This document shows, piece by piece, positions 5,574 through 24,261 of a stretch of 64,000 nt of DNA; position 1 is the stretch's first letter; every line of letters starts with the position of its first letter. The notes under the pieces were generated by a model, which did not search any database, had not been told where the DNA came from, and saw only the letters and a program-made list of their open reading frames with translations. The stretch is from Candidatus Heimdallarchaeota archaeon (GTDB lineage Archaea > Asgardarchaeota > Heimdallarchaeia > Hodarchaeales > Hodarchaeaceae), in the NCBI GenBank assembly GCA_020353515.1, contig CP070695.1:4625414-4689413 (forward strand), given 5' to 3'. Made by a program: the position numbers and the translations under genes.

Positions 5574-7592
5574 TTGGAGAGAAGCATCCTGCCAGAGTTT
5601 CAGCTAAAGTCTCCTTATCAACCTCGTGGTGATCAAATACCTGCAATACAGCAATTAATTCAAGGAATTAGTGATGGAAAAAAGTACCAAACTCTTTTAG
5701 GAGTGACAGGGAGCGGAAAAACATTTACAGTAGCCAATGTCATTGAACAAGTACAGAAACCTACTCTAGTAATCTCTCACAACAAGACGTTAGCAGCCCA
5801 GTTGTTTCAAGAATTTTCAGAGTATTTTCCTCATAATGCAGTAGAATACTTCGTTTCTTTTTATGACTACTACCAACCTGAAGCATACCTGCCAACAACT
5901 GACCGTTACATCGAGAAAGACTTCAGTATCAATGAGGAAATAGAGAAGATGAGATCTTCAACCACGAGAAGTCTCCTCGAACGGGATGATGTGATTGTTG
6001 TCGCGAGTGTTAGTTGTATTTATGGTCTTGGAGCCCCTGGATCTTATAAAGATATGAGTCTTTTTGTTGAGCGTGGTATGCATATTTCAAAAGAGGAAAT
6101 CCTAGCTACCCTAATTGATATCCAGTATGAACGCGATCAAATGGATTTTTCACGAGGAAAAATCAGAACACGTGGAGACACGATTGATATCTGGCCAATA
6201 TACGAAGACAACAAAGCAGTCCGAATAGAACTCTTTGGAGATGAAATTGACCGTATTACTTATATTCACCCCATCTCGGGGAAAACTCTGCTTTCTCTTG
6301 ATCGTGCGATCGTTTTTCCTGCAAAACACTATATTCGACCCAAAGACGAGCTTAGAGCGGCACTTAGTGGAATTCGAAAAGAATTAAGAGTCCGACTCAA
6401 AGAATTGAGACACCAAAATAAGATAGTTGAAGCACATAGACTGCAACAACGAACACTGTATGACCTAGAGTTGCTAGAAGAGATCGGCCATTGTCCTGGG
6501 ATAGAGAACTATTCTAGATACTTTGACAAGCGTGAGGAAGGAGAACCACCTTCAACATTGCTGGAATTCTTTCCTAAGGATTTTCTCCTAATCATTGATG
6601 AATCTCATATGACGATTCCACAAATTGCAGGAATGAGAGAAGGTGATCTTTCAAGGAAGAAAAATCTGGTAGATTATGGTTTTAGACTCCCCTCTGCTTT
6701 TGACCATCGGCCATTGAGTTTTAAAGAATTTGAAGTTCGGATGGGACAAACAATATTTGTTAGTGCGACTCCAGGTGATTATGCACGGAAAAAAAGCGGA
6801 ATGAACAGTATTGTAGAACAGATAATTAGACCTACAGGATTAATTGATCCAGAGATTGCAGTCAAGTTAAAATTACCAAATCCAATAGATGATTTAATCA
6901 GTGAAATACAGCAGACCACAAAAAGAGGCGAACGGACATTAGTGACTACTTTGACGAAAAGAATGGCTGAAAACCTTGCTGACTACCTTGAAGAGATAAA
7001 AGTACGTGCACGGTACCTTCATTCTGAGATTAAAACCCTAGAAAGAACTGATATCCTACGATCATTGAGGCTTGGGGATTTTGATGTTCTTGTTGGAATT
7101 AACCTTCTCCGAGAAGGGCTTGATTTGCCAGAGGTCTCTTTAGTTGCTATTCTAGATGCAGATAAACAGGGATTCCTAAGAAATGAACGATCTTTAATAC
7201 AAACTATTGGTCGGGCAGCTCGAAATGTCAACGGACGAGTTGTTTTTTATGCAGACAAAGTTTCAGAATCAATGGAGATGGCCATAGCGGAAACGAAAAG
7301 GCGTCGTCGAAAACAATTAGAATTCAATGAGAGAATGGGGATTACTCCACAAACAATATTTAAGGAAGTACGCTCTCCACTTGTTGAACTACAGACATCC
7401 TTTACAGCCATCCAACGAGAGAAAATATCTGCAGAAGATTTACCTGAATATATTGAAGCCTTGAGAAGTGAAATGCAACTAGCTGCAAAAAATCTGGAGT
7501 TTGAAAAAGCTGCAGAAATACGAGATATGATTATTGACCTAGAGAGTCCAAAAATTAAGACACCAAAAATTGTGGATAGAAAAAGTTTCTGA
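5574..7592 (+). CDS. uvrB: Excinuclease ABC subunit B
   Basis: LGVTGSGKT, HNKTLAAQL, YDYYQPEAY beta-hairpin, DESH, GINLLREGLD, QTIGRAAR, C-terminal UVR domain (LEFEKAAEIRD). Confidence 0.97.
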   Translation: MERSILPEFQLKSPYQPRGDQIPAIQQLIQGISDGKKYQTLLGVTGSGKTFTVANVIEQVQKPTLVISHNKTLAAQLFQEFSEYFPHNAVEYFVSFYDYYQPEAYLPTTDRYIEKDFSINEEIEKMRSSTTRSLLERDDVIVVASVSCIYGLGAPGSYKDMSLFVERGMHISKEEILATLIDIQYERDQMDFSRGKIRTRGDTIDIWPIYEDNKAVRIELFGDEIDRITYIHPISGKTLLSLDRAIVFPAKHYIRPKDELRAALSGIRKELRVRLKELRHQNKIVEAHRLQQRTLYDLELLEEIGHCPGIENYSRYFDKREEGEPPSTLLEFFPKDFLLIIDESHMTIPQIAGMREGDLSRKKNLVDYGFRLPSAFDHRPLSFKEFEVRMGQTIFVSATPGDYARKKSGMNSIVEQIIRPTGLIDPEIAVKLKLPNPIDDLISEIQQTTKRGERTLVTTLTKRMAENLADYLEEIKVRARYLHSEIKTLERTDILRSLRLGDFDVLVGINLLREGLDLPEVSLVAILDADKQGFLRNERSLIQTIGRAARNVNGRVVFYADKVSESMEMAIAETKRRRRKQLEFNERMGITPQTIFKEVRSPLVELQTSFTAIQREKISAEDLPEYIEALRSEMQLAAKNLEFEKAAEIRDMIIDLESPKIKTPKIVDRKSF

Positions 7593-7616
7593 TTGGATTT
7601 AGACTCTCTAGTTTGA

Positions 7617-9038
7617 TTACGTATGGATAGGACGGTCTAAAGCACACAGAACTGCTTCTTTGATTGTTTCATAGAATACTGGGTGTGAATGTTCAACTTT
7701 AATTAAATCTTCTGCTTTCATTCGATTCCCTACCGCTAAAGCGCCTTCTGCAATTAACTCAGTTGCGCTGGGACCGATAATGTGCACTCCAATAATTTCT
7801 GTAGTTTTTGCATCCAGAATTACCTTAACAAATCCACGGTTCTGCCCGGCAATAATTGCTCGGCCATTTCCTTGAAAGGGAAACTTTCCTACAAGAATTT
7901 CACCATATTTTTCTTTTGCTTTCTCCTCGGATAAACCAACCGAGGCTACTTCAGGATTAGTAAAAATAGTGGTCGGGATAGCATGATAATTCATTTCAGT
8001 ATCATGACCTAATGCATTTTCAACAGCAACTTCGCCTTCGTGTGATGCTGTGTAAGCTAACATAGGCGAAGGTACTCCTTGAACTACATCACCTGCAGCA
8101 TATACTCCAGGAATATTTGTTTCCATCTTTTTATTAACGATAATTCCACGATCATGTTCAATTCCTGCTTTATCAAGGTTTAATCCCTTTATTGCTGGAG
8201 CTCGCCCAATTGAGACTAGTACGTAATCAGCTTCGATATTATATTCTTTATTTTCAGCATCTATGAATATAACCCTTTTTTTACCAACAGGAGTATCTGA
8301 AATACGAGTGACACGTGAACTAGTATGGACTTTGATTCCACTTCGTTTAAAGGAAGCTTCAAGCTCCTTACTAAGATCAGGATCTTCCATTGGGATTAAA
8401 CGGGGGAGCATCTCTACAACAGTAACATCTGTTTCCTCAAAACATCTAAAAACGCATGCAAATTCTCCACCAATAGCACCACCTCCAATTACAATTAAGC
8501 TCTTAGGAATATGACTCAGTTCAAGCAATTTCTTACTCGTTAGAACTTTCACTCCATCAATTCCTGGTATCGGTACAAAAAATGGTTGACTTCCTGTGGC
8601 AATGATGACTTTTTTAGCAGAAACACGATATGTCCTATTCGATGTGGTTACAGAGAGTGTATAAGGATCAATGAATTTTCCCTCTCCATTCAACACACGA
8701 ACGTTGGCATTTTTCAAGAGGAAATCGATACCTTTCACAAGCCGACGAACAATCATGGTTTTCCTTTTTTGAATACGAGGAAAATCAACACCGATATATT
8801 CAGATTTTAGCCCAAACCGAGCCATTTCCCTTAGTGCCTTGCATCGTTTCGCGGACTCAACTAATACTTTAGTAGGAATACATCCACGATTAAGACAGGT
8901 ACCTCCTATCTGGCCTTTTTCGATGAGTACAACACCATTATCACTCAACTGAGCTGCTCTTATCGCTGCTACGTAACCTGCTGGCCCACCTCCTAGAATG
9001 GCAATTTCGGCATGAACTATTTCTACTATTTCTTCCAT
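7617..9038 (-). CDS. lpdA: Dihydrolipoamide dehydrogenase (E3)
   Basis: GGGPAG FAD motif, GGTCLNRGCIP redox disulfide, GGGAIG NAD motif, C-terminal HPVFYE. Confidence 0.92.
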   Translation of the reverse strand: MEEIVEIVHAEIAILGGGPAGYVAAIRAAQLSDNGVVLIEKGQIGGTCLNRGCIPTKVLVESAKRCKALREMARFGLKSEYIGVDFPRIQKRKTMIVRRLVKGIDFLLKNANVRVLNGEGKFIDPYTLSVTTSNRTYRVSAKKVIIATGSQPFFVPIPGIDGVKVLTSKKLLELSHIPKSLIVIGGGAIGGEFACVFRCFEETDVTVVEMLPRLIPMEDPDLSKELEASFKRSGIKVHTSSRVTRISDTPVGKKRVIFIDAENKEYNIEADYVLVSIGRAPAIKGLNLDKAGIEHDRGIIVNKKMETNIPGVYAAGDVVQGVPSPMLAYTASHEGEVAVENALGHDTEMNYHAIPTTIFTNPEVASVGLSEEKAKEKYGEILVGKFPFQGNGRAIIAGQNRGFVKVILDAKTTEIIGVHIIGPSATELIAEGALAVGNRMKAEDLIKVEHSHPVFYETIKEAVLCALDRPIHT

Positions 9039-12190: not shown

Positions 12191-12943
12191 TTGGATAATA
12201 ATAAAAAGGACCCTGAAGAACCTCAAAATGAAGTAGATGATGTTACAGACCTTAAAGAATCAATTCGTGAAATGAAACAAGAAATTCGGGAACAGATGAG
12301 GGAACTCAGGGAAGAACTTGGGGATTTTAAAGAGGATTTTCCACCACCACGACGTCCAAGAAAACCGAGACCACCACGACCTCCCCGAGGTGAAATTGGT
12401 ATTCGTATAGATAAGGAAGACTGGGAAGATTGGGGTGAACGCTTTGGTAAATCCTTCGAACATTATATTGGAGGGATCTTAGATTCAATAGGAGAGACCA
12501 TTGATCGGTCTGTAGGTTCCATTTTCCACCCTCCTTCTGCCCGACGTGAACGGCGCTGGAAAGGAAAGAGAAAGGAACCATTCTTTGTTCCTGAAGAAGA
12601 ATTAGAAGAATTTTATACAGAGGGATCGAAAATTGCAGCAGCCCTCTCTGATCAAACTCGTCTAAGAATGTTGAAAGAACTTGAAAAAGAACCCCTCAGA
12701 CAATCTGATCTCTCAGAAAAAACCAATACCCGTGGTGGGAACTTCAAGCATCACATCACTATCCTCAAAGATGAAGGACTTGTCCGACAAGAAGGAGTTC
12801 GTGAACGCTATATGCTTACTTATTCTGGGCGAGAAGCCCTAAAACTTGTGGAATTCTTGTATTCTCGTGGTAAGAAGCGTATTCCTATCCCAGTCTATGC
12901 CACTGATGAGGAAGAAGAAGATATTCTAGATGAGGAGGAATAA
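12191..12943 (+). CDS. ArsR-like winged-helix transcriptional regulator with long N-terminal extension
   Basis: ALSDQTRLRMLKEL...NFKHHITILKDEGLV..E...YMLT wHTH; N-terminal coiled-coil and Pro/Arg-rich tract; acidic tail. Confidence 0.8.
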   Translation: MDNNKKDPEEPQNEVDDVTDLKESIREMKQEIREQMRELREELGDFKEDFPPPRRPRKPRPPRPPRGEIGIRIDKEDWEDWGERFGKSFEHYIGGILDSIGETIDRSVGSIFHPPSARRERRWKGKRKEPFFVPEEELEEFYTEGSKIAAALSDQTRLRMLKELEKEPLRQSDLSEKTNTRGGNFKHHITILKDEGLVRQEGVRERYMLTYSGREALKLVEFLYSRGKKRIPIPVYATDEEEEDILDEEE

Positions 12944-13628
12944 CTGCGTGAACACCATTCAATTAGGAGACATTCTCTATGATTGGTATGGAGAACCAGA
13001 AATCCTTTCAACTCCTTATTATAAAATAATTCTCACGAAACCTGCTAAAATAATGGAAATCACCACAGATTTACCATCAACCAACGGAATAGTCATTCTA
13101 GGGGATATAGAAGCGATAGTTGATTCAATTATGTACACCAAGTCTCATGGTGCAGTTGGTAATACAACTAATTTTTCAGGAACCAATTTGGTCATCTTAG
13201 GTCTTTCAATAGCTAATTTAGAAAGTTCTCTCAAGAAAAGTGACCTTCCAGATGAAGAGGATCAAAAATTCAAAAATCAGGCTGAAGCGATAATCTCGAA
13301 ATTTAAAAGACGAGTTGAAGACCCGAATATGAATATTTCACTTGATAATGAAGATGACGAATTTCATCATATGATTTTCGGTCGGAGAAACTTTTTCCTT
13401 ATTGGAGGTATTCATAGTAGGAAATTCGTTTTAATTCACAAAAAGCAGATCTCAATCCGTGAAGGAGAATATAAATTAGTCCAGATTGATCCAGTAGAAG
13501 GCATTACTATTGCTAAACGGGATAATGTTTTGAATATTGGTGGTACACGAAATAATCTAGGCTCATTAGTGGGGGAATTTGGTTTGAATATTGCCTCTTC
13601 AGTACTTGAACATCTACTCTGGGATTAA
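12930..13628 (+). CDS. Hypothetical protein coupled to the ArsR-like gene
   Basis: ORF overlaps or abuts the upstream stop; the true start may be the GTG near 12948 after GGAGG. Confidence 0.6.
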   Translation: MRRNNCVNTIQLGDILYDWYGEPEILSTPYYKIILTKPAKIMEITTDLPSTNGIVILGDIEAIVDSIMYTKSHGAVGNTTNFSGTNLVILGLSIANLESSLKKSDLPDEEDQKFKNQAEAIISKFKRRVEDPNMNISLDNEDDEFHHMIFGRRNFFLIGGIHSRKFVLIHKKQISIREGEYKLVQIDPVEGITIAKRDNVLNIGGTRNNLGSLVGEFGLNIASSVLEHLLWD

Positions 13629-13675
13629 TGTCCTATCTTTTTTTCTCACTTTTACCTAGGAGAGGGGTCTGAAGG

Positions 13676-14995
13676 CTAAATTGCCTTCATTTCACCAGAT
13701 TTAACCCCAAACATCATTATAAAAGCTATTACAAAACAAATAGAACTCACTGGGAACAGCAGAGAGAATGTACCAGCAGCAAATAAGTCAAAAATTAACC
13801 CAATAATTGCAGGACCAGCAACAGCAGCAGAACTACTGAATAGGTAATAAAGGCCAGTGTATGACCCCAACTTCTCATCAGTGGCGATTTCCCAGACAAT
13901 TACAATCGAATTAATATTAATTAAAGCCCACCCAATTCCTCCACAACCCATAATTATCATTGTTATGTAATACTGGAGTTGAGGAGTCAAACCTAGTATG
14001 TTAAATTGCCCAATAGCCATTGTACATATTAAAAAAAAGAGTAAAACTGGTAATCCAATCCTTATTGTATTTGCCCTTCCAATTTTTTGTCCAATATACC
14101 CAGCAGGGATAGCAAAAACTACAAAAACTAGCGCAAATAGCGTTAACATCAGACTTGCTGCTGCTTCTGCATCTTCAATTGCTGCTTCGGTCCCTGGTTC
14201 TGCAATATTCATTATATGAGGAACAATCGTCGTTGCCCAGCTTGTAAACCATGTTTCAAGAGCATTATATCCTAGGAACCAGAAGAATATAGCGATTAAT
14301 ACAAAAAGACATGATTTATCTTTGTCAGTAAGAACTTCTCTTATACTTGAAATAACTGAGACTTTAGGAACTGTGATCTCTTCAGTACTTTCACGAATTA
14401 CGACATCTTCGGGTTCCTTTACGAAACTCACAAGTAATATAAGTGCTATTATCATAATTAGCGCTGTACTTCCAAAAGCAACTACTGGATCAATTGAGTA
14501 GAGTATTGAACCAAAAAGAAAAGCGTAAACTGCTCCAAGACCACCCATCAGATTTATTACTCCGTTTGCTTTACTTCTCTGTTTTGATGGTATTACATCT
14601 GGCATCAGAGCAACCACAGGTGCCCGATAGAATGCCATCATTAGCAAGAAACAAATTATGGCAGCCATTAGAACGAGTAAAACATCTTTCACTAGTGGAA
14701 GTGATGTTAAAAAGAAAGCAGAGATAGGAACACCTATAATTAGAAATGGGATCCGCCGTCCCCATCGGGTTCTCGTCCGATCTGAGATTGATCCAACTAT
14801 AGGTTCCATAAATATCATTGCTAGGTTATCAAGTCCCATAATAGCCCCGACAACAACACGATCGGGAATGAAGCTGTTTAACCATAATGGAACATAACTG
14901 TTGTATAAAGCCCAACTGATTCCAGTTGTAAAAAATCCTAATCCTATCAAAAACGTCTTTGACCAATTTAGGCCTGAATCTTCACCCGAATGCAT
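13676..14995 (-). CDS. MFS sugar transporter (GPH/SLC45/MalT-like)
   Basis: About 12 TM helices; GSISDRTRTRWGRRIPF motif. Confidence 0.88.
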   Translation of the reverse strand: MHSGEDSGLNWSKTFLIGLGFFTTGISWALYNSYVPLWLNSFIPDRVVVGAIMGLDNLAMIFMEPIVGSISDRTRTRWGRRIPFLIIGVPISAFFLTSLPLVKDVLLVLMAAIICFLLMMAFYRAPVVALMPDVIPSKQRSKANGVINLMGGLGAVYAFLFGSILYSIDPVVAFGSTALIMIIALILLVSFVKEPEDVVIRESTEEITVPKVSVISSIREVLTDKDKSCLFVLIAIFFWFLGYNALETWFTSWATTIVPHIMNIAEPGTEAAIEDAEAAASLMLTLFALVFVVFAIPAGYIGQKIGRANTIRIGLPVLLFFLICTMAIGQFNILGLTPQLQYYITMIIMGCGGIGWALININSIVIVWEIATDEKLGSYTGLYYLFSSSAAVAGPAIIGLIFDLFAAGTFSLLFPVSSICFVIAFIMMFGVKSGEMKAI

Positions 14996-15127
14996 AGTTT
15001 AACCTAAAGAAATGAGAGAGCATATTATTATTTCGTAGCTTTCAAGGTCAGAGAATAAGAGTTAGACCTGCATTTTGACTAGGAATTTCTTTGTTAAAAG
15101 TGTTCTTTTATCTCATTATGAGAATAA

Positions 15128-15601
15128 CTATTTGTGTGGAGTAACTGAAGCTGTAATTATATCTCGAATTTTCCCCCCTTCTGTTTTATCAGATTTTGCT
15201 AAGAAACGCTTCCAGTAATCAACCGGAACACCAATTAAATCAAATAATTCTTTCAAAATGATGTACATTTCAATGATTAAATCAGAATTATTTTTTAAGA
15301 TGGCTTCATCTCCAGGTCGGCGGAGAAAACTACGTATAGTAGTTAAAACATCTATTGCTACTTCATTCAATTTTACATTTTTATCTTGAGCTAAGGAAAT
15401 CTCTGTAAACTCATGTTCCTTAGCAAAATTCATAGTCTCAACATTTGCAGCTAAGACAGTAAAGCCATCTGTGTCACTTTTAATATAATGGAAGATAATA
15501 TCATCTTTAGGAACACGATTCATAAGAAAAGGACCTAATTGGGAAAAATTGATCTGTTTCATCTTGTCAAACGAGATTTGATAGTATTTCATTAACATCA
15601 A
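15128..15601 (-). CDS. Hypothetical protein
   Basis: 157-aa ORF with protein-like composition; no motif. Confidence 0.55.
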   Translation of the reverse strand: MMLMKYYQISFDKMKQINFSQLGPFLMNRVPKDDIIFHYIKSDTDGFTVLAANVETMNFAKEHEFTEISLAQDKNVKLNEVAIDVLTTIRSFLRRPGDEAILKNNSDLIIEMYIILKELFDLIGVPVDYWKRFLAKSDKTEGGKIRDIITASVTPHK

Positions 15602-15764
15602 CTAAGAAAAAAAGAAAGAAAGAGAGGTTAGGTGAGGTTGGATGAGTAACCTTTCAGTCACTTAGTACAACCTATAGATTAATTTCGTCACTAGTATATA
15701 AATATGCCGATAGACATAACCGTGCTAAAACACTGCGAATTATACTTAAAGAGTTCACACCTCT

Positions 15765-16517
15765 TTACAAGCTCGGAATCTTTCCCACTGGAGCGACATA
15801 TACAGTAAATTCATTTTCTCCATCAATCCCGAGTAATGTATCAACTTTATTCTGATTATAAAATCCGATTGCGCATGTTCCTGCATTTATTGCTGCACAA
15901 GCTAAGTACAAATTCTGACAAATATGACCTGCTTCTAATGCAATGAATTTGCTTGATAGAATTGAGTGTCTCCATTCCATTCGATAAGGAACTGCTACCC
16001 AACACAAAATAATTGCTCCGTTTACAGCAAAAGAGTATTGTTTATAACAAATTTTTTCCATTAAAGCTTCCATATCTTTTATATATTCTAAATAGCAAAG
16101 CTTATGACTAAGTGAAAGGTATCGGTAGAGGCCTTGTTCTAAACTTGTAACTCTATTTATGAAAAGATAAGTTTCAAACGGGTGTCTTCCCCCAGCTGAA
16201 GGAGTTGTTCGTTTGACCTGATTTTGAGTTACTTTTCTCACTCCTTGTGTACACCATAACAAAAATGATAATTCCTCAAGCGTTAAGGGATCTTTAACAT
16301 ATTTTCTATGACTCCTTCGCAATCTGATCACCTCCTTAAATGCAATATTCCCAACACTAATGTCTTCTGGAGAAATCAGATCTATTACTTTTGCCTCCTT
16401 AGGATAGTCTTTTTGTATTGGGGGTTGAGGAAGGTTCTTCTCTTGATCTGACTCAGGAAAATCCTTTGAATATCTGTCTTCATCCCATGCTTTAAGCACT
16501 TTTCTGAATTCGTTCAA
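15765..16517 (-). CDS. SagB/ThcOx-type FMN-dependent nitroreductase-family dehydrogenase
   Basis: RRSHRKY, RTTPSAGGRHPFE, EAGHICQNLYL and GTCAIG motifs. Start reassigned from 16607 to TTG 16517 (AGGTGA SD). Confidence 0.85.
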   Translation of the reverse strand: MNEFRKVLKAWDEDRYSKDFPESDQEKNLPQPPIQKDYPKEAKVIDLISPEDISVGNIAFKEVIRLRRSHRKYVKDPLTLEELSFLLWCTQGVRKVTQNQVKRTTPSAGGRHPFETYLFINRVTSLEQGLYRYLSLSHKLCYLEYIKDMEALMEKICYKQYSFAVNGAIILCWVAVPYRMEWRHSILSSKFIALEAGHICQNLYLACAAINAGTCAIGFYNQNKVDTLLGIDGENEFTVYVAPVGKIPSL

Positions 16518-16563
16518 CTGATCACCTAAAGCTTTGGATAATTGAACTATTAGATTATTTATC

Positions 16564-17610
16564 CTAATGAGAGTATCCCTGCAGTTTTTGGGCACCCTTC
16601 TGTTCAAGTATCTTAATCTTGTTTAAGATGTCCACAACAACGAGTATTATTTGATTTCTTTCTTGATCTGATGAATCGGGTATTCTTTGTACGGTTTGGG
16701 AGATTTCTTCCCATTTCATACCTAGATTTTTGTAAAATTCACCCAAACTGTCCAAGGAAGGATAAAATTCTGCGGATTCTTCCAAAAATTGTGAATATAG
16801 GAGTCTAAACAGTCCCCCACCAGTTCCATAGTCTGAGATGAATCCTGCAATTTCATCACACCGTTCTTGGAGTTTTGGATTACTCATGATTGATAATTTT
16901 TCTAAATCTAGGACAAATTTTGTTATGGCATCAATCCCATTTGTTGTTCCGAAAATACGCATCATTCGACTTTTTTTCAAGATATTCTGACCATTCTTTT
17001 GAATAGCAATTAGGATAACATCCTTGGGATCTGGAACTTTTTCTGGAAATGAAAATTCATACATGAAATTTCGTGGATCCATCCAACGACTATATGAAGA
17101 ATTTCTCGCTCTAGCTAAATCATCTAATGAGATTTTTTGTAAATCAGGAAAATGAGTATCTGCAATTAAGACTTTAGAATTTTCAGGATTGTATCCTGCA
17201 ACCACAATCGCATGCTGTCCAAAGTGGAAACCCTTAGGTAATTGTTGATATGGTAAGTAAGCCATATCTACGTTGATTGCTGTAGGTATTCCATTCTCTA
17301 TCCGTTCTCTGAGTCGATGCCATCCCTCTTCCTTATTATTCGTCATGAATTTGTGTAATTCGATGTTCAATAGTTTACACAGATTATCTTCAAATCTATA
17401 TTGTCGTCCACCCATTATTGGATTCTCACTTCCAAGTTTTCCATACCCCAACCCCAAACCGCTGCCTAAACCAAAAATCATTGCCTCACTCATTGTTAAT
17501 CCGTGAAATTCAAAGACATCTCGAATGGCTGAGGAAGTACAATGTACACCAGGGACGTGACGAAAATTAGAGATAGGATAATTGTTTATATGTTTCGCAT
17601 TGCTAACCAT
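16564..17610 (-). CDS. BtrH-family protein (BtrH_N papain-like fold + DUF4872-like C-terminus)
   Basis: HCTSSAIR (Cys), SEAMIFGLG.GL, HFGQHAIVVAGY (His), IADT (Asp), GTGGGLFRLLYSQFL. Confidence 0.8.
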   Translation of the reverse strand: MVSNAKHINNYPISNFRHVPGVHCTSSAIRDVFEFHGLTMSEAMIFGLGSGLGLGYGKLGSENPIMGGRQYRFEDNLCKLLNIELHKFMTNNKEEGWHRLRERIENGIPTAINVDMAYLPYQQLPKGFHFGQHAIVVAGYNPENSKVLIADTHFPDLQKISLDDLARARNSSYSRWMDPRNFMYEFSFPEKVPDPKDVILIAIQKNGQNILKKSRMMRIFGTTNGIDAITKFVLDLEKLSIMSNPKLQERCDEIAGFISDYGTGGGLFRLLYSQFLEESAEFYPSLDSLGEFYKNLGMKWEEISQTVQRIPDSSDQERNQIILVVVDILNKIKILEQKGAQKLQGYSH

Positions 17611-17627
17611 GATTATGAACTCCAGAG

Positions 17628-20093
17628 TTAATGGACAAGAAAGGTAGCAACTTTCGATTGTTTAATCTTTTTAATGTCTTCTGGAGATCCTGTTGCGATT
17701 ACTTCTCCTCCCTCAGGACCCCCTTGAGGACCCAATTCTATTAAATAATCTACATAAGACAATACGTCCACATCATGCTCAATTATCAATACAGTATTCC
17801 CTTGGTTAACTAATTTATCTAAGAGAGTAATCGTTTTCAGGATATCATTGTAATGAAGTCCAGTGGTAGGCTCGTCTAAAACATAGAGTGTTTTCTTCTT
17901 CCTCGCCCTTCCCAGTTCCTTAGCCAATTTAATCCTTTGAGCTTCTCCACCACTTAATGTTGTTGCAGGTTGCCCTAGCGTTATATAGCCCATCCCGATA
18001 TCGTCAAGGATGTTCAGATGGTTTATAATTTTCTCTTCATTCTTGAAGATTTCAAGGGATTCAGATACAGTTAAGTTGAGTATTTCATGGATATTCCGTT
18101 CTTTGTATTTTACTTCTAGAATTTCCAACAAATAGCCTGTTCCATCGCATTCTTCACACGGTAAATCGATTTTCGTGAAGAATGAAATCTGTAAATCAAT
18201 AAATCCACCCCCTTTACAATGAGGACACCGTCCTTTATCACTATTAAAGGAAAAATGTCCAGGACTATATTTTCGTGTTCTAGCTACCCGCTGTTTGGCA
18301 AACAACTTTCTGATATCGTCCCAAATTCCAATGTAACTAACAGGATTTGATGTTTTGGTTCTACCAATAGGGGACTGAGAGACTACAATGCAATCTGAAA
18401 CCTCTTCCCAGCCTGAAAGCTTTCCTTTAATTTCATCGATCTGGATGTATCCCTCCTCTTCCCCATTTTTCTTATTGAAATGTTCTTGTAACAAAGGTAC
18501 GAGCGTTTCACTGATTAAAGAACTCTTTCCACTTCCAGAAACACCAGCAACTCCAACCATTATTCCTAAGGGTATTTTTATTTCTATATTTTTCAAATTG
18601 TTTGTAGTTACATCCTTCAGTACAAGGAATCCTGCTGATTTTAATATCTTTCTCTTTTCTGTGGGTTTTTTTCGGGGAAGTTGAAGTTCTCCACTCATGA
18701 ACTTTCCAGTATAAGACTTTTTATTTTTCTTGATTTCCTCTAGCGATCCTTGAAAGATGATCTCCCCACCATTTATTCCCGCACCAGGCCCCAGATCAAT
18801 TATTTGATCCGCTTTTGAAATAATATTTCTATCATGTTCCACAATGATCACGGAATTTCCAAGTTCTTTTATTTCTGATAATATGGTCATTAGACTGTTC
18901 TTTTCAAGCTCATGCATCCCCATACTGGGTTCATCAAGAATGAAAATCAAGGAGTCCAATCCAGCATCCAAATGGGACATTAAACTCAGTCTTTGAAGCT
19001 CTCCACCTGATAAAGTTGTCATACTCCTATTCAAACTGAGATAGGAAAGTCCAACAAGCTTTGATTTCTCGAGACGCTTAATTATTTCATTTTTAAGCGC
19101 TTTTCCATGACTAGTTTTCACATGAGAATCCAAATCTTTCAAGAACTTGATTAATTCAGCGATGGTCATGGTTCCCAATTCTCCGATGTGTTTCTCATTA
19201 ATTAATGCCGTTCTTGCCTGCTCATTGACCTTATACCCATGACAACTGGGACAAGTTACTTTCGTCATAAAATTCTTTTCAATCTTATTCCTTCTATAAG
19301 CACTTGTGGTTTTGGCCATCGCTCTTTCAAGATGGGGGATGATTCCTTCAAATTTTGTTTCTATCAGGCCCTCAAATCTTCGAGATTTCCACTTGAATTG
19401 CATCTTCTTGTCTGTTCCATACAAAAAAATATCCTGAATCTTTTGGGGGAGTCGGTTGTATGGGGTATTGATATCAAATTCCATTACGTCAGCTAAACCT
19501 ATTGTAAAATTCTTCATGTCTCCAAAAGCAGCTGATCCACTTGCACAGATTTCTAGGAGATTTTTTGTAGGATCGGGTATCAACTTTTCCTCACGAAATT
19601 CTGCGATATAACCTCTTCCTTTACATTCTAAGCACATTCCAGAAGGTTCGTTATAACTGAAGTGCTTGATCTCAAGATTTATTGCCTTCATTCCACAAGT
19701 TGGGCATGATAGATCAATATCAACTGGTATTTGACAAATCTGACATGTTTTTATACTTTCTAAGGCAAATAGATGACGTAATAAAGTGTAGATTGTGGTT
19801 TTTGTTCCAACAGTGGATCGAGGACTAACAATACGGGCAGTTCGTTGTTCTACTGCCACGGTCGGAGACAACCCACTTAATAAATCGAATGGTTTCTCTT
19901 TCTCAACTTTGGGAGGTAGTCCTATCGATTGGAGATATCGTCTCATTCCTTCTTCAAACAGAATGTCGAAAGCGAGTGAGCTTTTCCCGGAGCCTGAAAC
20001 TCCAGTAATCGCAATGATTTGGCTTTTCGGAATATTAACATTTATGTTTTTCAAATTATGAATTCTTGCCCCAACTACTTTAATCTGATTCAT
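17628..20093 (-). CDS. uvrA: Class II UvrA-like ABC ATPase (DrrC/Ecm16/UvrA2 type)
   Basis: Two GVSGSGKSS Walker A motifs, two LSGGE signatures and Zn modules. The segment between the first CxxC pairs (CQIC...CPTC) is only ~10 aa, so the UvrB-binding domain is missing; 821 aa. Confidence 0.88.
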   Translation of the reverse strand: MNQIKVVGARIHNLKNINVNIPKSQIIAITGVSGSGKSSLAFDILFEEGMRRYLQSIGLPPKVEKEKPFDLLSGLSPTVAVEQRTARIVSPRSTVGTKTTIYTLLRHLFALESIKTCQICQIPVDIDLSCPTCGMKAINLEIKHFSYNEPSGMCLECKGRGYIAEFREEKLIPDPTKNLLEICASGSAAFGDMKNFTIGLADVMEFDINTPYNRLPQKIQDIFLYGTDKKMQFKWKSRRFEGLIETKFEGIIPHLERAMAKTTSAYRRNKIEKNFMTKVTCPSCHGYKVNEQARTALINEKHIGELGTMTIAELIKFLKDLDSHVKTSHGKALKNEIIKRLEKSKLVGLSYLSLNRSMTTLSGGELQRLSLMSHLDAGLDSLIFILDEPSMGMHELEKNSLMTILSEIKELGNSVIIVEHDRNIISKADQIIDLGPGAGINGGEIIFQGSLEEIKKNKKSYTGKFMSGELQLPRKKPTEKRKILKSAGFLVLKDVTTNNLKNIEIKIPLGIMVGVAGVSGSGKSSLISETLVPLLQEHFNKKNGEEEGYIQIDEIKGKLSGWEEVSDCIVVSQSPIGRTKTSNPVSYIGIWDDIRKLFAKQRVARTRKYSPGHFSFNSDKGRCPHCKGGGFIDLQISFFTKIDLPCEECDGTGYLLEILEVKYKERNIHEILNLTVSESLEIFKNEEKIINHLNILDDIGMGYITLGQPATTLSGGEAQRIKLAKELGRARKKKTLYVLDEPTTGLHYNDILKTITLLDKLVNQGNTVLIIEHDVDVLSYVDYLIELGPQGGPEGGEVIATGSPEDIKKIKQSKVATFLVH

Positions 20094-20105
20094 TTTTTCA
20101 CTCTC

Positions 20106-21248
20106 TCATAGTTTTATTTGCAATAATTTCCTAAATCCACTTTCTTCTAGGTTAATGATATCTTCAACGAGTTTGGCTAATCCTGTTAAATCTAGGAGTT
20201 GTAAACATTCTTCCTCGTCTTGATCCAAAACCTTCTTGATATTACTCGAAAATTCAGTCCACAACGCAGCTGATTTCGCAATTTTCTCCATTGCATCCTT
20301 CAAATAGAAGAGTTCCTCCTCCTTCCAAGCATGTATTCCCTCTCTAATGTCATGATGATTCAAAAGTTCTTTCAAATAGTTTGAATAAAGATTTCGAAAG
20401 ATAGCTCCTCCTGTTCCCATTTCCTCGATTAATCCATATACCATTTCAAGTGTAAATGCTGCCTTTGATATAGTTTCATTGGAATAAGGTGTTTTCATTG
20501 TTCCTTTCAAAATATTTGGCCAAGTTGGTATTGATTCCATAAATGATTTTAATGCAGGAATCCCATGATAGTTTGTTGATGGAGCTACGACTTGTCGGGC
20601 AACCTGTTGAAGGGGCAACTTTATTGCTCTAGCAAAGGGAGATTTTTTCCCATCTGATCTTTTAAAGATACGAACATGTTTATTATGGGGATGCAAGAGT
20701 CGCTCTCCAAATTTTGAACTGCGTGCTTTCTTGAGGTCTTCGATTGGAACCTCTTGAACATCATCAAATTCTGTATCATAGATAAAGGCTACATCTTTTA
20801 CTTCATCATATCCAGTTAGTGTAACATAATGGCCTCCAAAGTGCATTTCTTCGGGCCAATCAAAATATGATAAGAAACCCATATCAACCTGCAATCCTAA
20901 GGGAATATTTTGCGTGATCCATTTTTTAGAAACTTCCCAAGCAATATTAGCAGAAGTAAACGTTTCTATACTAATATTCAATCCCAATATACGGCACACC
21001 ATACTCTCATCAGTGACTGTTCCTTGTTTCCCTCCAATGAATAACGGAAATTCCCTACCAAACAAATCTTCTGTTTGATCACTCTGTGAATTATTGAAAA
21101 AAGTAAATCCAAATGTGCAATCTAGACCAAACACCATATTCTCAGTAATTTCAACTCCTTCATGTACAATTAGGTTTCTTAATGTTGTAGATTCACAATG
21201 GCTCCCCTTATTATGGGAAAAATTTTCAATAGTATGACTTGTATTCAT
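20106..21248 (-). CDS. BtrH-family protein, second paralog
   Basis: HCESTTLR, TENMVFGL, HFGGHYVTLTGY, IYDT, GTGGAIFRNLYSNYL. Confidence 0.8.
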   Translation of the reverse strand: MNTSHTIENFSHNKGSHCESTTLRNLIVHEGVEITENMVFGLDCTFGFTFFNNSQSDQTEDLFGREFPLFIGGKQGTVTDESMVCRILGLNISIETFTSANIAWEVSKKWITQNIPLGLQVDMGFLSYFDWPEEMHFGGHYVTLTGYDEVKDVAFIYDTEFDDVQEVPIEDLKKARSSKFGERLLHPHNKHVRIFKRSDGKKSPFARAIKLPLQQVARQVVAPSTNYHGIPALKSFMESIPTWPNILKGTMKTPYSNETISKAAFTLEMVYGLIEEMGTGGAIFRNLYSNYLKELLNHHDIREGIHAWKEEELFYLKDAMEKIAKSAALWTEFSSNIKKVLDQDEEECLQLLDLTGLAKLVEDIINLEESGFRKLLQIKL

Positions 21249-21251
21249 TTT

Positions 21252-21932
21252 TCATACCTCTCGAAATTTAAACTCTCCTTCATCTTCTCTAATGGATTGA
21301 ATAAACTCCTCTACCCATTGTCTTTGAGCTTTGACTATATAGTATGGCCTTTCAAATAAGGCTTTGACAACAAATTTATGTCTAGAACTTTGAAACTCTT
21401 TTGCAGTCGCACCTCCTACTATAATCTGGTTAGGGGCAGATTTTACAATTTCCTCCACATTCTCCATTTTTTCAAGTTGTAGCTCAAACCAGTAAATACC
21501 GTTGTCAAGTTCTCCCTTATATTCCTCCAAAGCAGAAAGGGCATCAGATTTAGGCAAAAGAGAAATTCCCGCTAATCCTAAATCGAATAAGGATTTTGTT
21601 CTTGGAGGACTACGCAGACAAAACTGGATTTGCTCGCAAATTTTCTGTTCCCCGATTTCAGTGATTGTGTAGATTTTTTTAGAGAGCTGTTCATCCCGTT
21701 TTTTCTCTCCTTGAATGTACTTTTTATTTTCTAATATACCTAAACTCTTATAGATTGTTGACAGTTTCATATCAACCCATTCTTCGAACCCCCTCTCATC
21801 AAGTATTTTCTTGATATGCCAAGCATGTGCTGGTCCTTCTGATAAGATTAATAACAATGCTATTTGGGTTGCTGGGATAAATTTCACTTTATTAGATTGA
21901 GTTTGGTTCTTTCTTGATTTTTGACTCTGCAT
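21252..21932 (-). CDS. PadR-family transcriptional regulator
   Basis: LLILSEGPAHAWHI...STIYKSLGILE..KYI...KKIYTITEIG, plus a helical C-terminal domain. Confidence 0.88.
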   Translation of the reverse strand: MQSQKSRKNQTQSNKVKFIPATQIALLLILSEGPAHAWHIKKILDERGFEEWVDMKLSTIYKSLGILENKKYIQGEKKRDEQLSKKIYTITEIGEQKICEQIQFCLRSPPRTKSLFDLGLAGISLLPKSDALSALEEYKGELDNGIYWFELQLEKMENVEEIVKSAPNQIIVGGATAKEFQSSRHKFVVKALFERPYYIVKAQRQWVEEFIQSIREDEGEFKFREV

Positions 21933-21952
21933 TTATTATCGCCACTTAAAGA

Positions 21953-21987
21953 ATATTCTACTAATGTAACTTCTACTAGTAGAATAT
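21953..21987. promoter_or_regulatory. Candidate PadR operator: inverted repeat ATATTCTACTA-N13-TAGTAGAATAT overlapping the perfect palindrome TTCTACTAGTAGAA
   Basis: Arms at 21953-21963 and 21977-21987; palindrome at 21971-21984. Lies between a TATATA element (21985-21990) and the padR ATG. Confidence 0.6.
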
Positions 21988-22089
21988 ATAACAATGTCTA
22001 AATGGGTAATTCTATGATATCCGGATGATTTCTCTAGGCCTATTATTAAAAAATTAGATATCTAAACTTATAAGGATTGGATAAGAATA

Positions 22090-22368
22090 ATGAATTTTCC
22101 GAATACACCGTGTTATTATTATAAGAGTAAGATTGCAGTCACAAAATGTGAACGATACAATCATCCTATCTGTTTAGAAGACAAACGAATATATAAAAGA
22201 ACAAGATGTTATAAAAATGGAGTGAGTAATGGAAGAGTATCCTATTCATATGATTATGTGTACTATGATTGTATTCCGTGTAATGCAATTGATACCACAC
22301 ATAAGAAGCAGAGCTTTGAAAGAAGTTTGTCTCCAAATGATGAACTCAGAGGTGACCCTAGTGAATAA
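22090..22368 (+). pseudogene. Degenerate or truncated B-box-like zinc-finger ORF
   Basis: C-YYY-x4-AVTKC-ER-Y-x2-PICLED...CIPC pattern; expected His/Cys ligands appear replaced by Tyr; the tail runs into the next gene. Confidence 0.35.
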
Positions 22369-23176
22369 TTTTCAAAATCGTGATAGTTGGAACACTATTT
22401 CAAGATCGTATCAAGGTGAGAAACGAATTTCCCTACAAGACGTTCATTACGGTCCTGTTGCTCCTGGCGAAAGGAAATTAAATTTCCTCGGTGATGTTAA
22501 GGGTAAAAGAATCTTAGAACTCGGTTGCGGGGGTGGCCAAAACTCAATTGTGCTAACCAAATGGGGTGCAGAAGTTATTGGGTTAGATATCTCAGATATT
22601 CAGCTAGAACATGCGAATACCCTCGCAAAAGAGGAAGGCGTAAGAGTCCAATTTGTACAGGGGAGGATGGAAGACTTAGAAAGATTTAAAAATAATACAT
22701 TCGATATTGTAATTTCTTCCCATGCTATTGGGTATGCAGACGATTTAAAGGCAGTGTATAAGGAAACTGCCCGTGTTCTAAAACCTGAAGGATTCTTAGT
22801 GTTTTGTTTCGAGCATCCTATTTACTTAACTATTGGATCAGCACTAGAAGAATGGGATTTTAAAAAGGTTAAAAACTACTTTGATAGAAACCGAGAAGAA
22901 TGGGATTGGTCCTGTTTTGACGGAACTATAGCAACGTTCAATCAAGGAAATTGGTCGATTAAGGAAATTATCAATGATTGCATTGAAGTAGGATTGCATA
23001 TAATTCGAATAGAGGAACCTCAAGCACATGATATCGCTAATATGGATAAGAAAGCCAGGTCAGCTGTTCCTTACATCTCAGCAGTGGATGAAACACATGA
23101 TAACTACTTTAACAAATTTGTACAGGTAATTAGAATCATCCCGTTTTCATTAATACTCAAAGCTAAAAAGTCATGA
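22361..23176 (+). CDS. Class I SAM-dependent methyltransferase
   Basis: ILELGCGGG, GLDIS, FDIVIS, RVLKPEG. Start reassigned to GTG 22361 (GAGGTGA SD). Confidence 0.9.
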   Translation: MNNFQNRDSWNTISRSYQGEKRISLQDVHYGPVAPGERKLNFLGDVKGKRILELGCGGGQNSIVLTKWGAEVIGLDISDIQLEHANTLAKEEGVRVQFVQGRMEDLERFKNNTFDIVISSHAIGYADDLKAVYKETARVLKPEGFLVFCFEHPIYLTIGSALEEWDFKKVKNYFDRNREEWDWSCFDGTIATFNQGNWSIKEIINDCIEVGLHIIRIEEPQAHDIANMDKKARSAVPYISAVDETHDNYFNKFVQVIRIIPFSLILKAKKS

Positions 23177-23289
23177 TATACGACTTTTTCTCACCATCCT
23201 ATCTTTAAATAACCCCTAGCACAAATGCAAAAATAGAAAGGTAAATTCCACTAAACAAAAAAAAAGTTGATGAGGTTGATCGCATCCTA

Positions 23290-23588
23290 ATGAGATTAGA
23301 AGCAGGTACCTCAGTCGAGGCAATTTTTGATGACACTAGTATTCCTTTAGAATCAATTAAGAAAGTAAAATATTATTACAAAGCGTCAAATTATGCAAGA
23401 AGAGTGCCTTTGATCCCAGAGTTGTAAACAAATTGAAAAAAACTCATAAATGTTGTAAATGCGAGGCAGAGTTCTACGCGAGCTATAAGGGATTATATTA
23501 TTGTCCGATTCATCTAGAAGAAGCGCTAGCTAAAGAGAAGAAAGCCACTAAAGAAAAGATTGAAAGCCTAACTCTGAAAAATCATTAG
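23290..23588 (+). other. Two short adjacent ORFs (45 aa and a 51-aa Zn-finger-like ORF), or one frameshifted gene
   Basis: 23290-23427 MRLEAGTSVEAIFDDTSIPLESIKKV...; 23433-23588 contains CCKC...YYCPIHLEE. Confidence 0.35.
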
Positions 23589-23703
23589 CACTAGAAATTT
23601 TATATTGAACGCAGTTTAGATTAAAAAGAAAGTTTCTTAAGAAATCAGAAAAAATTCTTAATATAGCTGATGGTAATTTTATTACAATACGGAGATAACT
23701 TTA

Positions 23704-24261
23704 ATGTCCACCGATGAAATTCTATTTGAAATGCCTCATTTTTCGCAATATAAGATCGTTGTAGCTGGTGATGCGCTAGTTGGAAAGACTCAATTAGTAT
23801 CTGTATTTACTGGAAGAGATTTTGAGCACAAACCGACCGCAGGAGCTGATATTTCGTTTCTTAAATTACGGGGTAAAGGAGATAAAGGTGACCAAACAAC
23901 AACTGCTATTTTTTGGGATCTATCAGGACAACCTGCTTTTGATAAAGTACGCCCCCTCTTCTATGAGGGAGCCCATGCAGTAATCTATACTTTTGATGTA
24001 ACTAGGGAGTCTACGGTTTTATCACTTCCAAGCTGGGTGAAAGAAGTGAAAAAAAATCTACCTAATAGTCCCGCTATCTTAATTGGGAATAAAATTGATC
24101 TGAAAAAAGAACGACAAGTTAGTGATGATATAGGCCAGAAATTTGCTGATCGAATGAACGCAGCATACTTTCCGACATCTGCTACCAAGAATCAAGGCGT
24201 TGGGACAGCTTTTGCATCTGCGATTCGACGCGCTGTGTATTTCAGGGATGCAGAGGGATAA
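23704..24261 (+). CDS. Rab-like small GTPase
   Basis: GDALVGKT, PTAGADI, WDLSGQ, FDKVRPLFYEGA, FDVT, NKID, SAT; no C-terminal prenylation Cys. Confidence 0.92.
   Translation: MSTDEILFEMPHFSQYKIVVAGDALVGKTQLVSVFTGRDFEHKPTAGADISFLKLRGKGDKGDQTTTAIFWDLSGQPAFDKVRPLFYEGAHAVIYTFDVTRESTVLSLPSWVKEVKKNLPNSPAILIGNKIDLKKERQVSDDIGQKFADRMNAAYFPTSATKNQGVGTAFASAIRRAVYFRDAEG

Follow-up and report, generated by a model that had tools for sequence, protein, structure and literature searches.

Three neighboring genes, which encode a PadR-family regulator (PadR), a BtrH-like enzyme with a papain-like domain (BtrH_A), and a UvrA paralog missing the UvrB-binding domain (UvrA2), form a conserved unit in Asgard archaea. 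This unit lies in a 64,000-nucleotide (nt) stretch of the closed, 4.94-Mb genome of Candidatus Heimdallarchaeota archaeon (the window, whose numbering is used here unless genome coordinates are given), where it is part of a row of five co-oriented minus-strand genes at 15765-21932: padR, BtrH_A, UvrA2, BtrH_B, and a gene for a SagB-type nitroreductase. An earlier interpretation made from the letters of the window (the sequence-only reading) had proposed all five genes as one inducible defense module. Its PadR-BtrH_A-UvrA2 part is upheld across five families, while BtrH_B and the SagB-type gene fall outside the conserved unit, which is smaller than five genes. We give about even chances to the view that this unit, as a resistance operon induced by a ligand, protects against a small molecule that binds DNA and is probably planar or cationic.

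Conservation and Linkage of the Three Genes

The DNA around PF14399 matches and around UvrA2 orthologs was fetched, and all open reading frames (ORFs) were scored against the window proteins with phmmer, an E value of at most 1e-230 serving to define UvrA2 orthologs. Such orthologs occur in 89 of 400 Asgard genomes, with 56-89% identity and, where complete, a length of 820-865 amino acids (aa). UvrA2 was detected in 79 of the 135 genomes of family f20 (Loki-type genomes), 3 of the 21 of f1 (the host's own family, comprising one genus), 2 of 3 in f15, 1 of 2 in f17, 1 of 4 in f21, 1 of 12 in f7, and one genome of f32; the genomes with UvrA2 are kin and do not represent independent samples.

A BtrH_A-type gene is found within approximately 6 kb of UvrA2 on the same contig in at least 77 of these 89 genomes, and padR nearly always comes first. 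The exceptions include two genomes with no such gene nearby (G081 and G227), one in which it is 10 kb away (G146), one in which the module is broken up (G065), and several modules that are cut at contig ends. The linkage of PadR, BtrH_A, and UvrA2 persists over five families (f1, f15, f17, f20, and f32) despite changes in gene order and cannot be attributed to chance, because it recurs in many genomes; the conservation elsewhere that the sequence-only reading had anticipated for PadR, BtrH, and UvrA was thus recovered.

The minimal form with only these three genes was observed in f1, f15, f17, and f32. In f20, the order is PadR, BtrH_A, a SAM (S-adenosylmethionine) methyltransferase, and UvrA2, with an alpha/alpha-toroid gene, a DUF3795 gene, and a second BtrH gene as variable members placed, in this order, between BtrH_A and the methyltransferase, and a tandem double UvrA together with a second toroid gene often comes after UvrA2. 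The methyltransferase inside these Loki-type operons is different from the one that is divergently transcribed in the window (see below). Neither a scaffold-building enzyme nor a carrier protein was found in any module scanned.

UvrA2 Architecture and Phylogeny

UvrA2 (17628-20093, minus strand, 821 aa) scores 846 bits against TIGR00630 and matches this model solely at positions 2-125 and 251-923, while its residues 127-819 align with residues 249-912 of Thermotoga maritima UvrA (3PIH). Model positions 126-250 thus remain unmatched, and the UvrB-binding domain is missing, as the sequence-only reading had stated, and a hand-off of UvrA2 to UvrB is therefore not expected. The other modules are retained, including two Walker A motifs, two LSGGE signatures, three Zn modules (three CxxC pairs), and an intact insertion (DNA-binding) domain (PF17755, 66 bits). 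Against sequences in the PDB, UvrA2 scores 655 bits with the class I UvrA of T. maritima, 540 bits with 2VF7, and 422 bits with 7SH1.

UvrA2 is an extra copy, since the host carries, besides it, two class I uvrA genes of full length (at 3.73 and 4.10 Mb) and a uvrB gene. This uvrB is the sole one of the genome and is located in the window itself (5574-7592, plus strand; TIGR00631, 999 bits; UvrB_inter, Helicase_C, and UVR domains), outside the operon, on the strand opposite to uvrA2 and approximately 10 kb from it.

For phylogenetic placement, a tree was built from 45 entries, each a UvrA sequence or half of one, in which plasmid-borne homologs stand in for Ecm16 (1331 bits to 7SH1) and for Deinococcus radiodurans UvrA2 (1164 bits to 2VF7). 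A representative-library search with UvrA2 was dominated by tandem double UvrAs and contributed two useful single-copy relatives. The Asgard UvrA2 proteins are monophyletic (support 97), and their closest neighbor is a 794-aa protein, followed by the C-terminal halves of tandem double UvrAs. They share one side of a split with the Ecm16-type clade (support 96), whereas the clade of the D. radiodurans UvrA2 type is placed with class I, apart from them. A grouping of UvrA2 with class I had been set beforehand as the result that would speak against the sequence-only reading; the best tree places UvrA2 apart, and constraining it to class I costs 36 log-likelihood units, with a borderline p value of 0.053 in the approximately unbiased (AU) test. 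A separation from class I is favored at this strength, and, as judged from this tree and from the alignments, UvrA2 is a distinct lineage without the UvrB-binding domain that stands outside the characterized resistance clades.

Two observations on other UvrA proteins were made along the way. The host genome also encodes a 1638-aa tandem double UvrA (G000:C1:3573597-3579532; locus L198, 7598-13533, plus strand), both halves of which lack the UvrB-binding domain and whose gene overlaps by 4 nt a 340-aa squalene-hopene-cyclase-like alpha/alpha-toroid gene; this pair is located 1.07 Mb from the module in the host and is often found directly after UvrA2 in f20 genomes. In Methanocella sp. (L144, approximately 6144-8660, minus strand), a UvrA of approximately 840 aa without the UvrB-binding domain lies about 1.2 kb from a divergently transcribed BtrH-like gene. 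It is the only case seen outside Asgard archaea of such a UvrA near a BtrH-like gene, and it groups near class I in the tree.

PadR and Its Putative Operators

The padR gene (21252-21932, minus strand) encodes a protein of 226 aa (PF03551, 42.3 bits at a cut-off of 27) comprised of an N-terminal winged helix and a C-terminal domain of approximately 120 aa, and in almost every module it immediately precedes BtrH_A. It is presumed to be an autoregulated repressor of the operon.

Its promoter region (21955-21991, minus strand), upstream of the padR ATG at 21932, contains a candidate operator. A TATA-like box, TTATATAT, at 21984-21991 directly precedes a perfect 14-bp palindrome, TTCTACTAGTAGAA, at 21971-21984, and a second, degenerate copy of the palindrome follows at 21955-21969, approximately 20 nt before the ATG. 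The 14-bp palindrome occurs once in the window, and the best genome-wide match to its 16-bp form is the padR promoter. The position of the palindromes predicts that PadR would occlude the promoter.

The arrangement of a TATA box and two ATTCT-N6-AGAAT palindromes is kept, across families, in 10 of the 12 padR promoters inspected. Three of these promoters (G076, G071, and G397) have the same palindrome core as the window, the promoters of f20 modules carry ATTCTCATATGAGAAT twice, and those of same-genus PadR-BtrH_B pairs carry ATTCTAATATTAGAAT twice. The half-sites ATTCT and AGAAT are fixed in the promoters of the window (21955-21991) and of loci L040, L042, L045, L057, L058, L083, and L086, and the central 6 bp vary by lineage (CTAGTA-like, AATATT, or CATATG), a pattern that looks like the co-evolution of a repressor with its operator. 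With regard to a wider regulon, a search of the genome with the 16-bp operator at up to three mismatches returned 69 matches versus 74 in the control and hence no evidence of further targets, and no operator was found upstream of the tandem double UvrA and toroid pair in the host genome.

BtrH_A and Its Relatives

BtrH_A (20106-21248, minus strand, 380 aa) is an enzyme of the transacylase fold composed of a papain-like N-domain (BtrH_N) and a helical C-domain (DUF4872). Its AlphaFold (AF2) model has a predicted local distance difference test (pLDDT) score of 91.3, and the model as a whole resembles AziU2/U3, CtaG, and CcbD (Z 21-23 over 292-320 aligned residues, at 11-15% identity), while the modeled N-domain on its own resembles phytochelatin synthase, the isopeptidase PeiR, and C39 peptidases (Z 12-14). 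In the sequence alignment, His17-Cys18, His136/His140, and Asp158 are invariant among close homologs, and the His-Cys, HFGxH, and Asp positions of the triad are kept in BtrH_A, BtrH_B, and bacterial relatives, in line with the intact Cys-His-Asp residues previously recognized in both window paralogs. BtrH_A is acidic (pI 5.4).

Matches to BtrH_A are all from Asgard archaea down to 38% identity, and the score falls from 250 to 121 bits where bacteria begin. In a tree of 153 BtrH-like proteins, BtrH_A is a single clade of 42 rows (support 100), 39 of which have UvrA2 within 8 kb. On this evidence, BtrH_A is an Asgard-only clade and a dedicated, almost perfectly linked partner of UvrA2.

The ligases CtaG, CcbD, BtrH, and AsbE were reported to be papain-like, to carry a Cys-His-Asp triad, and to utilize carrier-protein acyl donors in forming amide bonds, with amino sugars as the acylation targets of BtrH and CcbD (PMC12865890). 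No PP-binding gene was found in the host module or in the other modules scanned, and the sole PP-binding ORF of the genome (83 aa, 24.8 bits) is located approximately 1.9 Mb away. It lies 2 kb from the sole ACPS-type phosphopantetheinyl transferase gene (G000:C1:2726233-2728749) and appears with it as a lone carrier-protein system. As the modules contain no carrier protein, the donor of BtrH_A would be a coenzyme A (CoA) thioester, or else BtrH_A would be a hydrolase.

BtrH_B, the SagB-Type Gene, and the History of the Locus

The remaining two genes of the row are BtrH_B (16564-17610, minus strand, 348 aa; BtrH_N and DUF4872) and the SagB-type gene of the flavin mononucleotide (FMN) nitroreductase fold (15765-16517 or 15765-16607, minus strand, 250 or 280 aa; TIGR03605, 115.8 bits at a cut-off of 78.4). 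The Pfam and NCBIfam matches of all five genes agree with the identities given by the sequence-only reading, and so does the spacing: padR, BtrH_A, UvrA2, and BtrH_B are separated by 3, 12, and 17 nt, and BtrH_B and the SagB-type gene by 46 nt, provided that the latter starts at TTG 16517, which has an AGGTGA motif upstream; a start at TTG 16607 would result in a 44-nt overlap. What does not hold is the unity of the five genes, as the SagB-type gene turned up in no other module and BtrH_B comes from a different PadR-BtrH pair.

None of the approximately 100 other modules examined had the SagB-type gene; it is absent between BtrH_B and a downstream 157-aa ORF (orf157) in a genome of the same genus (G075), and no SagB similarity was detected in the 306 bp left after BtrH_B on the contig of another (G076). 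Three SagB paralogs are encoded elsewhere in the host genome, and an ortholog with 70% identity in G060 is not beside a BtrH gene. Of two metagenome scans, the first gave no relative and the second gave one with 65% identity, on an 8-kb contig that ends short of the SagB position. The SagB-type gene is a local accessory outside the conserved module. A SagB domain may also bring to mind thiazole/oxazole-modified microcin (TOMM) clusters; no YcaO gene was found among ORFs of at least 100 aa nearby, in a search that left aside ORFs of precursor size. The idea of an azole-containing or peptidic toxin was dropped, since its sole support was the SagB-type gene, which is not conserved in the module.

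BtrH_B falls into a genus-level clade of 12 rows in the 153-protein tree, 10 of which are without UvrA2, and by this placement it belongs to a separate, older two-gene PadR-BtrH unit that normally occurs without UvrA2. This two-gene unit is common in Asgard archaea. In addition, PadR-BtrH units without UvrA were detected in Dehalococcoidia (Dehalococcoidales), Aminicenantia, Verrucomicrobiota, Thermodesulfobacteriota, Theionarchaea, Methanomassiliicoccales, and others (loci L107, L109, L110, L114, L115, L119, L125, and L130), and the unit is apparently a mobile inducible enzyme unit. A sequence search of the PDB with BtrH_B gave no match, relatives having surfaced through the fold search alone.

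The genus shares one chromosomal locus that is anchored by a Ras-family GTPase gene on one side and by orf157 and a transporter gene of the major facilitator superfamily (MFS) on the other. At this locus, BtrH_A and UvrA2 are absent from three genomes, of which G074 has a PadR of a different type with a BtrH_B ortholog, G071 has the window-type PadR directly before BtrH_B, and G075 has BtrH_B alone, and a fourth genome, G076, has PadR, BtrH_A, UvrA2, and BtrH_B in the same order as the window. In f32, too, a PadR of the window type stands first in the PadR-BtrH_A-UvrA2 trio. Based on these arrangements, the simplest history would be that a PadR-BtrH_A-UvrA2 cassette took the place of the native padR before BtrH_B, after which some relatives lost part of it. 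Present in 3 of the 21 genomes of the genus, the cassette seems to have come and gone at a single locus, which is what one would expect from an accessory trait.

In G065, a genome of the same genus (L071), BtrH_A lies beside a 138-aa fragment of UvrA2 (G065:C1:747438-747866), and a 510-aa C-terminal UvrA2 piece with 80% identity is located 2.2 Mb away (2960620-2962047). The module seems to be broken or rearranged in this genome.

Genomic Neighborhood

Upstream, a SAM-dependent methyltransferase gene (22229-23176, plus strand; Methyltransf_11/25) diverges from the padR intergenic region and has the same position in G076; it is possibly an accessory member of the module. The Ras-family small GTPase gene that serves as a synteny anchor in same-genus genomes follows at 23704-24261 (plus strand; PF00071, 119 bits).

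Downstream, the MFS transporter gene (13676-14995, minus strand; MFS_1, 122.6 bits) is on the same strand as the operon, 2.6 kb away, is probably a separate transcription unit, and possibly provides an efflux component. Between the BtrH_B side and the MFS gene lies orf157 (15128-15601, minus strand), which matches no family, is flanked by gaps of 163 and 132 nt, and has 88% identity with its counterpart in G075. In the host genus, orf157 is always located between BtrH_B and the MFS gene, and the BtrH_B-orf157-MFS synteny is also found in G075, there without UvrA2.

No YcaO, nonribosomal peptide synthetase (NRPS), or carrier-protein gene was found among ORFs of at least 100 aa at 12191-24261, a size limit that leaves aside small precursor ORFs. 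The lack of a biosynthetic core enzyme, which the sequence-only reading had taken to argue against biosynthesis, is confirmed in so far as the neighbors are PadR, UvrA2, nitroreductase, methyltransferase, and MFS genes, with no scaffold-building enzyme among them.

Comparison with Known Systems

Our literature search returned no paper that contains both BtrH and UvrA and none with DUF4872, and a search on Asgard archaea, UvrA, and PadR revealed no description of the module; within the literature searched, this agrees with the sequence-only reading, which knew of no such module described in archaea. Two reports describe Ecm16 and DrrC, both class II UvrAs, as conferring resistance to DNA intercalators (PMC9328131, PMC10192343), and a third describes uvrA-like genes as markers of DNA-intercalator biosynthesis clusters (PMC10413001). 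Similar to UvrA2, Ecm16 (7SH1) and DrrC have no UvrB-binding domain and have intact ATPase sites; in the best tree, UvrA2 is on the same side of the split as the Ecm16-type clade but is not a member of it. D. radiodurans UvrA2 (2VF7) shows the same domain loss and a similar length, but the clade of its type sits with class I.

The closest known parallel, by analogy of gene content, is found in the chromomycin clusters of Streptomyces, in which the gene of a PadR-like repressor (SrcmRII/CmmRII) adjoins that of an 825-aa UvrA-like protein (SrcmJ/CmrX) (PMC5992853). In both settings, a PadR repressor gene is near a UvrA paralog of approximately 825 aa. The role of the aureolic-acid pair is resistance to a DNA-binding compound, whereas in the Asgard module this role is a reading. 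In addition, the bacterial pair resides inside a type II polyketide synthase (PKS) cluster with an ATP-binding cassette (ABC) exporter and has no BtrH-like enzyme, while the Asgard padR and uvrA2 genes share one operon with BtrH_A alone between them. No PKS or ABC-2 exporter gene was found at the Asgard module, whose MFS gene is 2.6 kb downstream.

CtaG, CcbD, BtrH, and AsbE share with BtrH_A the bipartite fold and the Cys-His-Asp triad (Z 21-22 over approximately 300 residues; PMC12865890). BtrH_A differs from them in its low identity of 11-15%, in having no carrier or biosynthetic neighbors, and in its DNA-binding ATPase partner. A further parallel is LmrR-LmrCD of Lactococcus lactis, where a PadR repressor likewise controls drug-protection genes beside its own gene; however, LmrR is a short PadR that regulates an ABC exporter, whereas the PadR of the module is long (226 aa), with putative ATTCT-N6-AGAAT operators and with UvrA2 and a BtrH-like protein as effectors.

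Proposed Role and Alternatives

In the proposed resistance operon, PadR would bind two palindromic operators over the region from the TATA box to the start codon and repress transcription until the compound, or a related signal, is bound. UvrA2, unable to recruit UvrB, would then spend ATP on locating DNA distorted by the drug and on freeing the compound from it, in the manner proposed for Ecm16 and DrrC. BtrH_A may inactivate the released compound covalently, either by N-acylation of an amine (compare BtrH and CcbD) or by cleavage of an amide or ester, and BtrH_B, the SagB-type nitroreductase, the divergent methyltransferase, and the MFS transporter would be lineage-specific add-ons. The repression, the inducer, the drug release, and the chemistry of BtrH_A are what we infer. 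The order drawn in the sequence-only reading, in which a toxin would be stripped from DNA, cleaved or acylated, and then redox-modified, is likewise a proposal. The scheme is supported by the nature of the accessory genes, which encode small-molecule enzymes or transporters (SAM methyltransferases, nitroreductase, and MFS). Further points in its favor are the domain loss in a UvrA with intact ATPase and Zn motifs, the status of UvrA2 as an extra copy, the resistance known for Ecm16 and DrrC, the conserved linkage to an Asgard-specific BtrH_A clade, the patchy distribution within the genus, the paired palindromes at the promoter, the lack of scaffold-building and carrier genes in the modules scanned, and the chromomycin precedent.

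Several points weigh against it. For every member, the support is confined to gene content, domain loss, intact catalytic motifs, fold, and the conservation of linkage and operators. We know of no candidate toxin for anoxic sediment habitats. UvrA2 stands outside both the Ecm16 and the D. radiodurans UvrA2 clades, with a borderline separation from class I in the AU test, and the operators are putative, recognized by conservation alone. Moreover, every relative of BtrH_A with a solved structure is either a ligase of a biosynthetic pathway or an enzyme that forms an aziridine, none of them a resistance enzyme, and the ligases among them use carrier-protein thioesters, for which no carrier is present at this module (PMC12865890).

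In a more ambitious version, which we regard as unlikely, BtrH_A and UvrA2 would form an obligate two-protein machine that works independently of UvrB and UvrC, the sensor passing a DNA-bound drug or a covalent DNA adduct straight to a thiol enzyme of the papain fold for acylation or cleavage.

It is improbable, in our estimate, that the genes constitute a cryptic small biosynthetic cluster, in which BtrH-type ligases and tailoring enzymes make a DNA-targeting metabolite, UvrA2 confers self-resistance, and PadR is the pathway repressor. The characterized structural relatives of BtrH_A (CtaG, CcbD, BtrH, AsbE, and AziU2/U3) are all biosynthetic, Loki-type modules add methyltransferase, alpha/alpha-toroid, and DUF3795 genes, uvrA-like genes serve as markers of DNA-intercalator clusters (PMC10413001), and the chromomycin cluster holds the same PadR and UvrA-like pair (PMC5992853). 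However, the conserved core consists of three genes with no carrier, adenylating, ATP-grasp, PKS, or NRPS gene in any module, the sole PP-binding ORF and its transferase are 1.9 Mb away, and the accessory genes vary freely among lineages.

A similarly low probability is assigned to a UvrB/UvrC-independent repair of DNA adducts, in which UvrA2 would find a bulky covalent lesion (for example, an acylated base or a crosslink of DNA to a peptide or protein) and BtrH_A would remove it by thiol-dependent cleavage. UvrA2 does retain all DNA-binding modules, the modeled N-domain of BtrH_A does resemble C39 peptidases, PeiR, and phytochelatin synthase (Z 12-14), and the near-obligate 1:1 pairing of BtrH_A with UvrA2 is more in keeping with two proteins that work as one machine than with a loosely assembled resistance island. 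On the other hand, BtrH_A is acidic and resembles, over its whole length, enzymes that work on small molecules; PadR regulators typically respond to small molecules and not to DNA damage; and no linked nuclease, ligase, or polymerase was found, nor any fused BtrH-UvrA protein, although the latter absence is weak evidence.

Least probable is a general xenobiotic or phenolic stress operon whose genes are merely co-regulated, with UvrA2 an auxiliary sensor for canonical nucleotide excision repair or part of an unrelated process. In favor of this view, many bacteria and archaea have PadR-BtrH pairs with no UvrA2, D. radiodurans UvrA2 has, to our knowledge, no clear drug-resistance role, the separation of UvrA2 from class I is not firm in the AU test (p 0.053), and the genome's only uvrB is approximately 10 kb from uvrA2. 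Against it, UvrA2 would not be expected to pass anything on to UvrB in the absence of the UvrB-binding domain, and the linkage is specific to the BtrH_A subfamily and is kept over five families despite changes in gene order.

Significance

UvrA paralogs without the UvrB-binding domain have been known mainly as self-resistance proteins of antibiotic-producing actinomycetes. Here, such a UvrA is accompanied by a near-obligate enzymatic partner and a readable putative operator, outside any biosynthetic cluster, in approximately one-fifth of the Asgard genomes sampled. If the proposed resistance operon is real, it would suggest that DNA-binding compounds serve as chemical weapons in anoxic sediments, would offer a simple three-gene system in which to study DNA protection by class II UvrAs, and would extend the papain-like ligase fold of CtaG, CcbD, and BtrH from biosynthesis to carrier-independent protection. 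If, instead, BtrH_A and UvrA2 act as an obligate two-protein machine, Asgard archaea would possess a widespread "find and chemically disarm" form of DNA protection, that is, a previously unknown pathway and not a loose resistance island.

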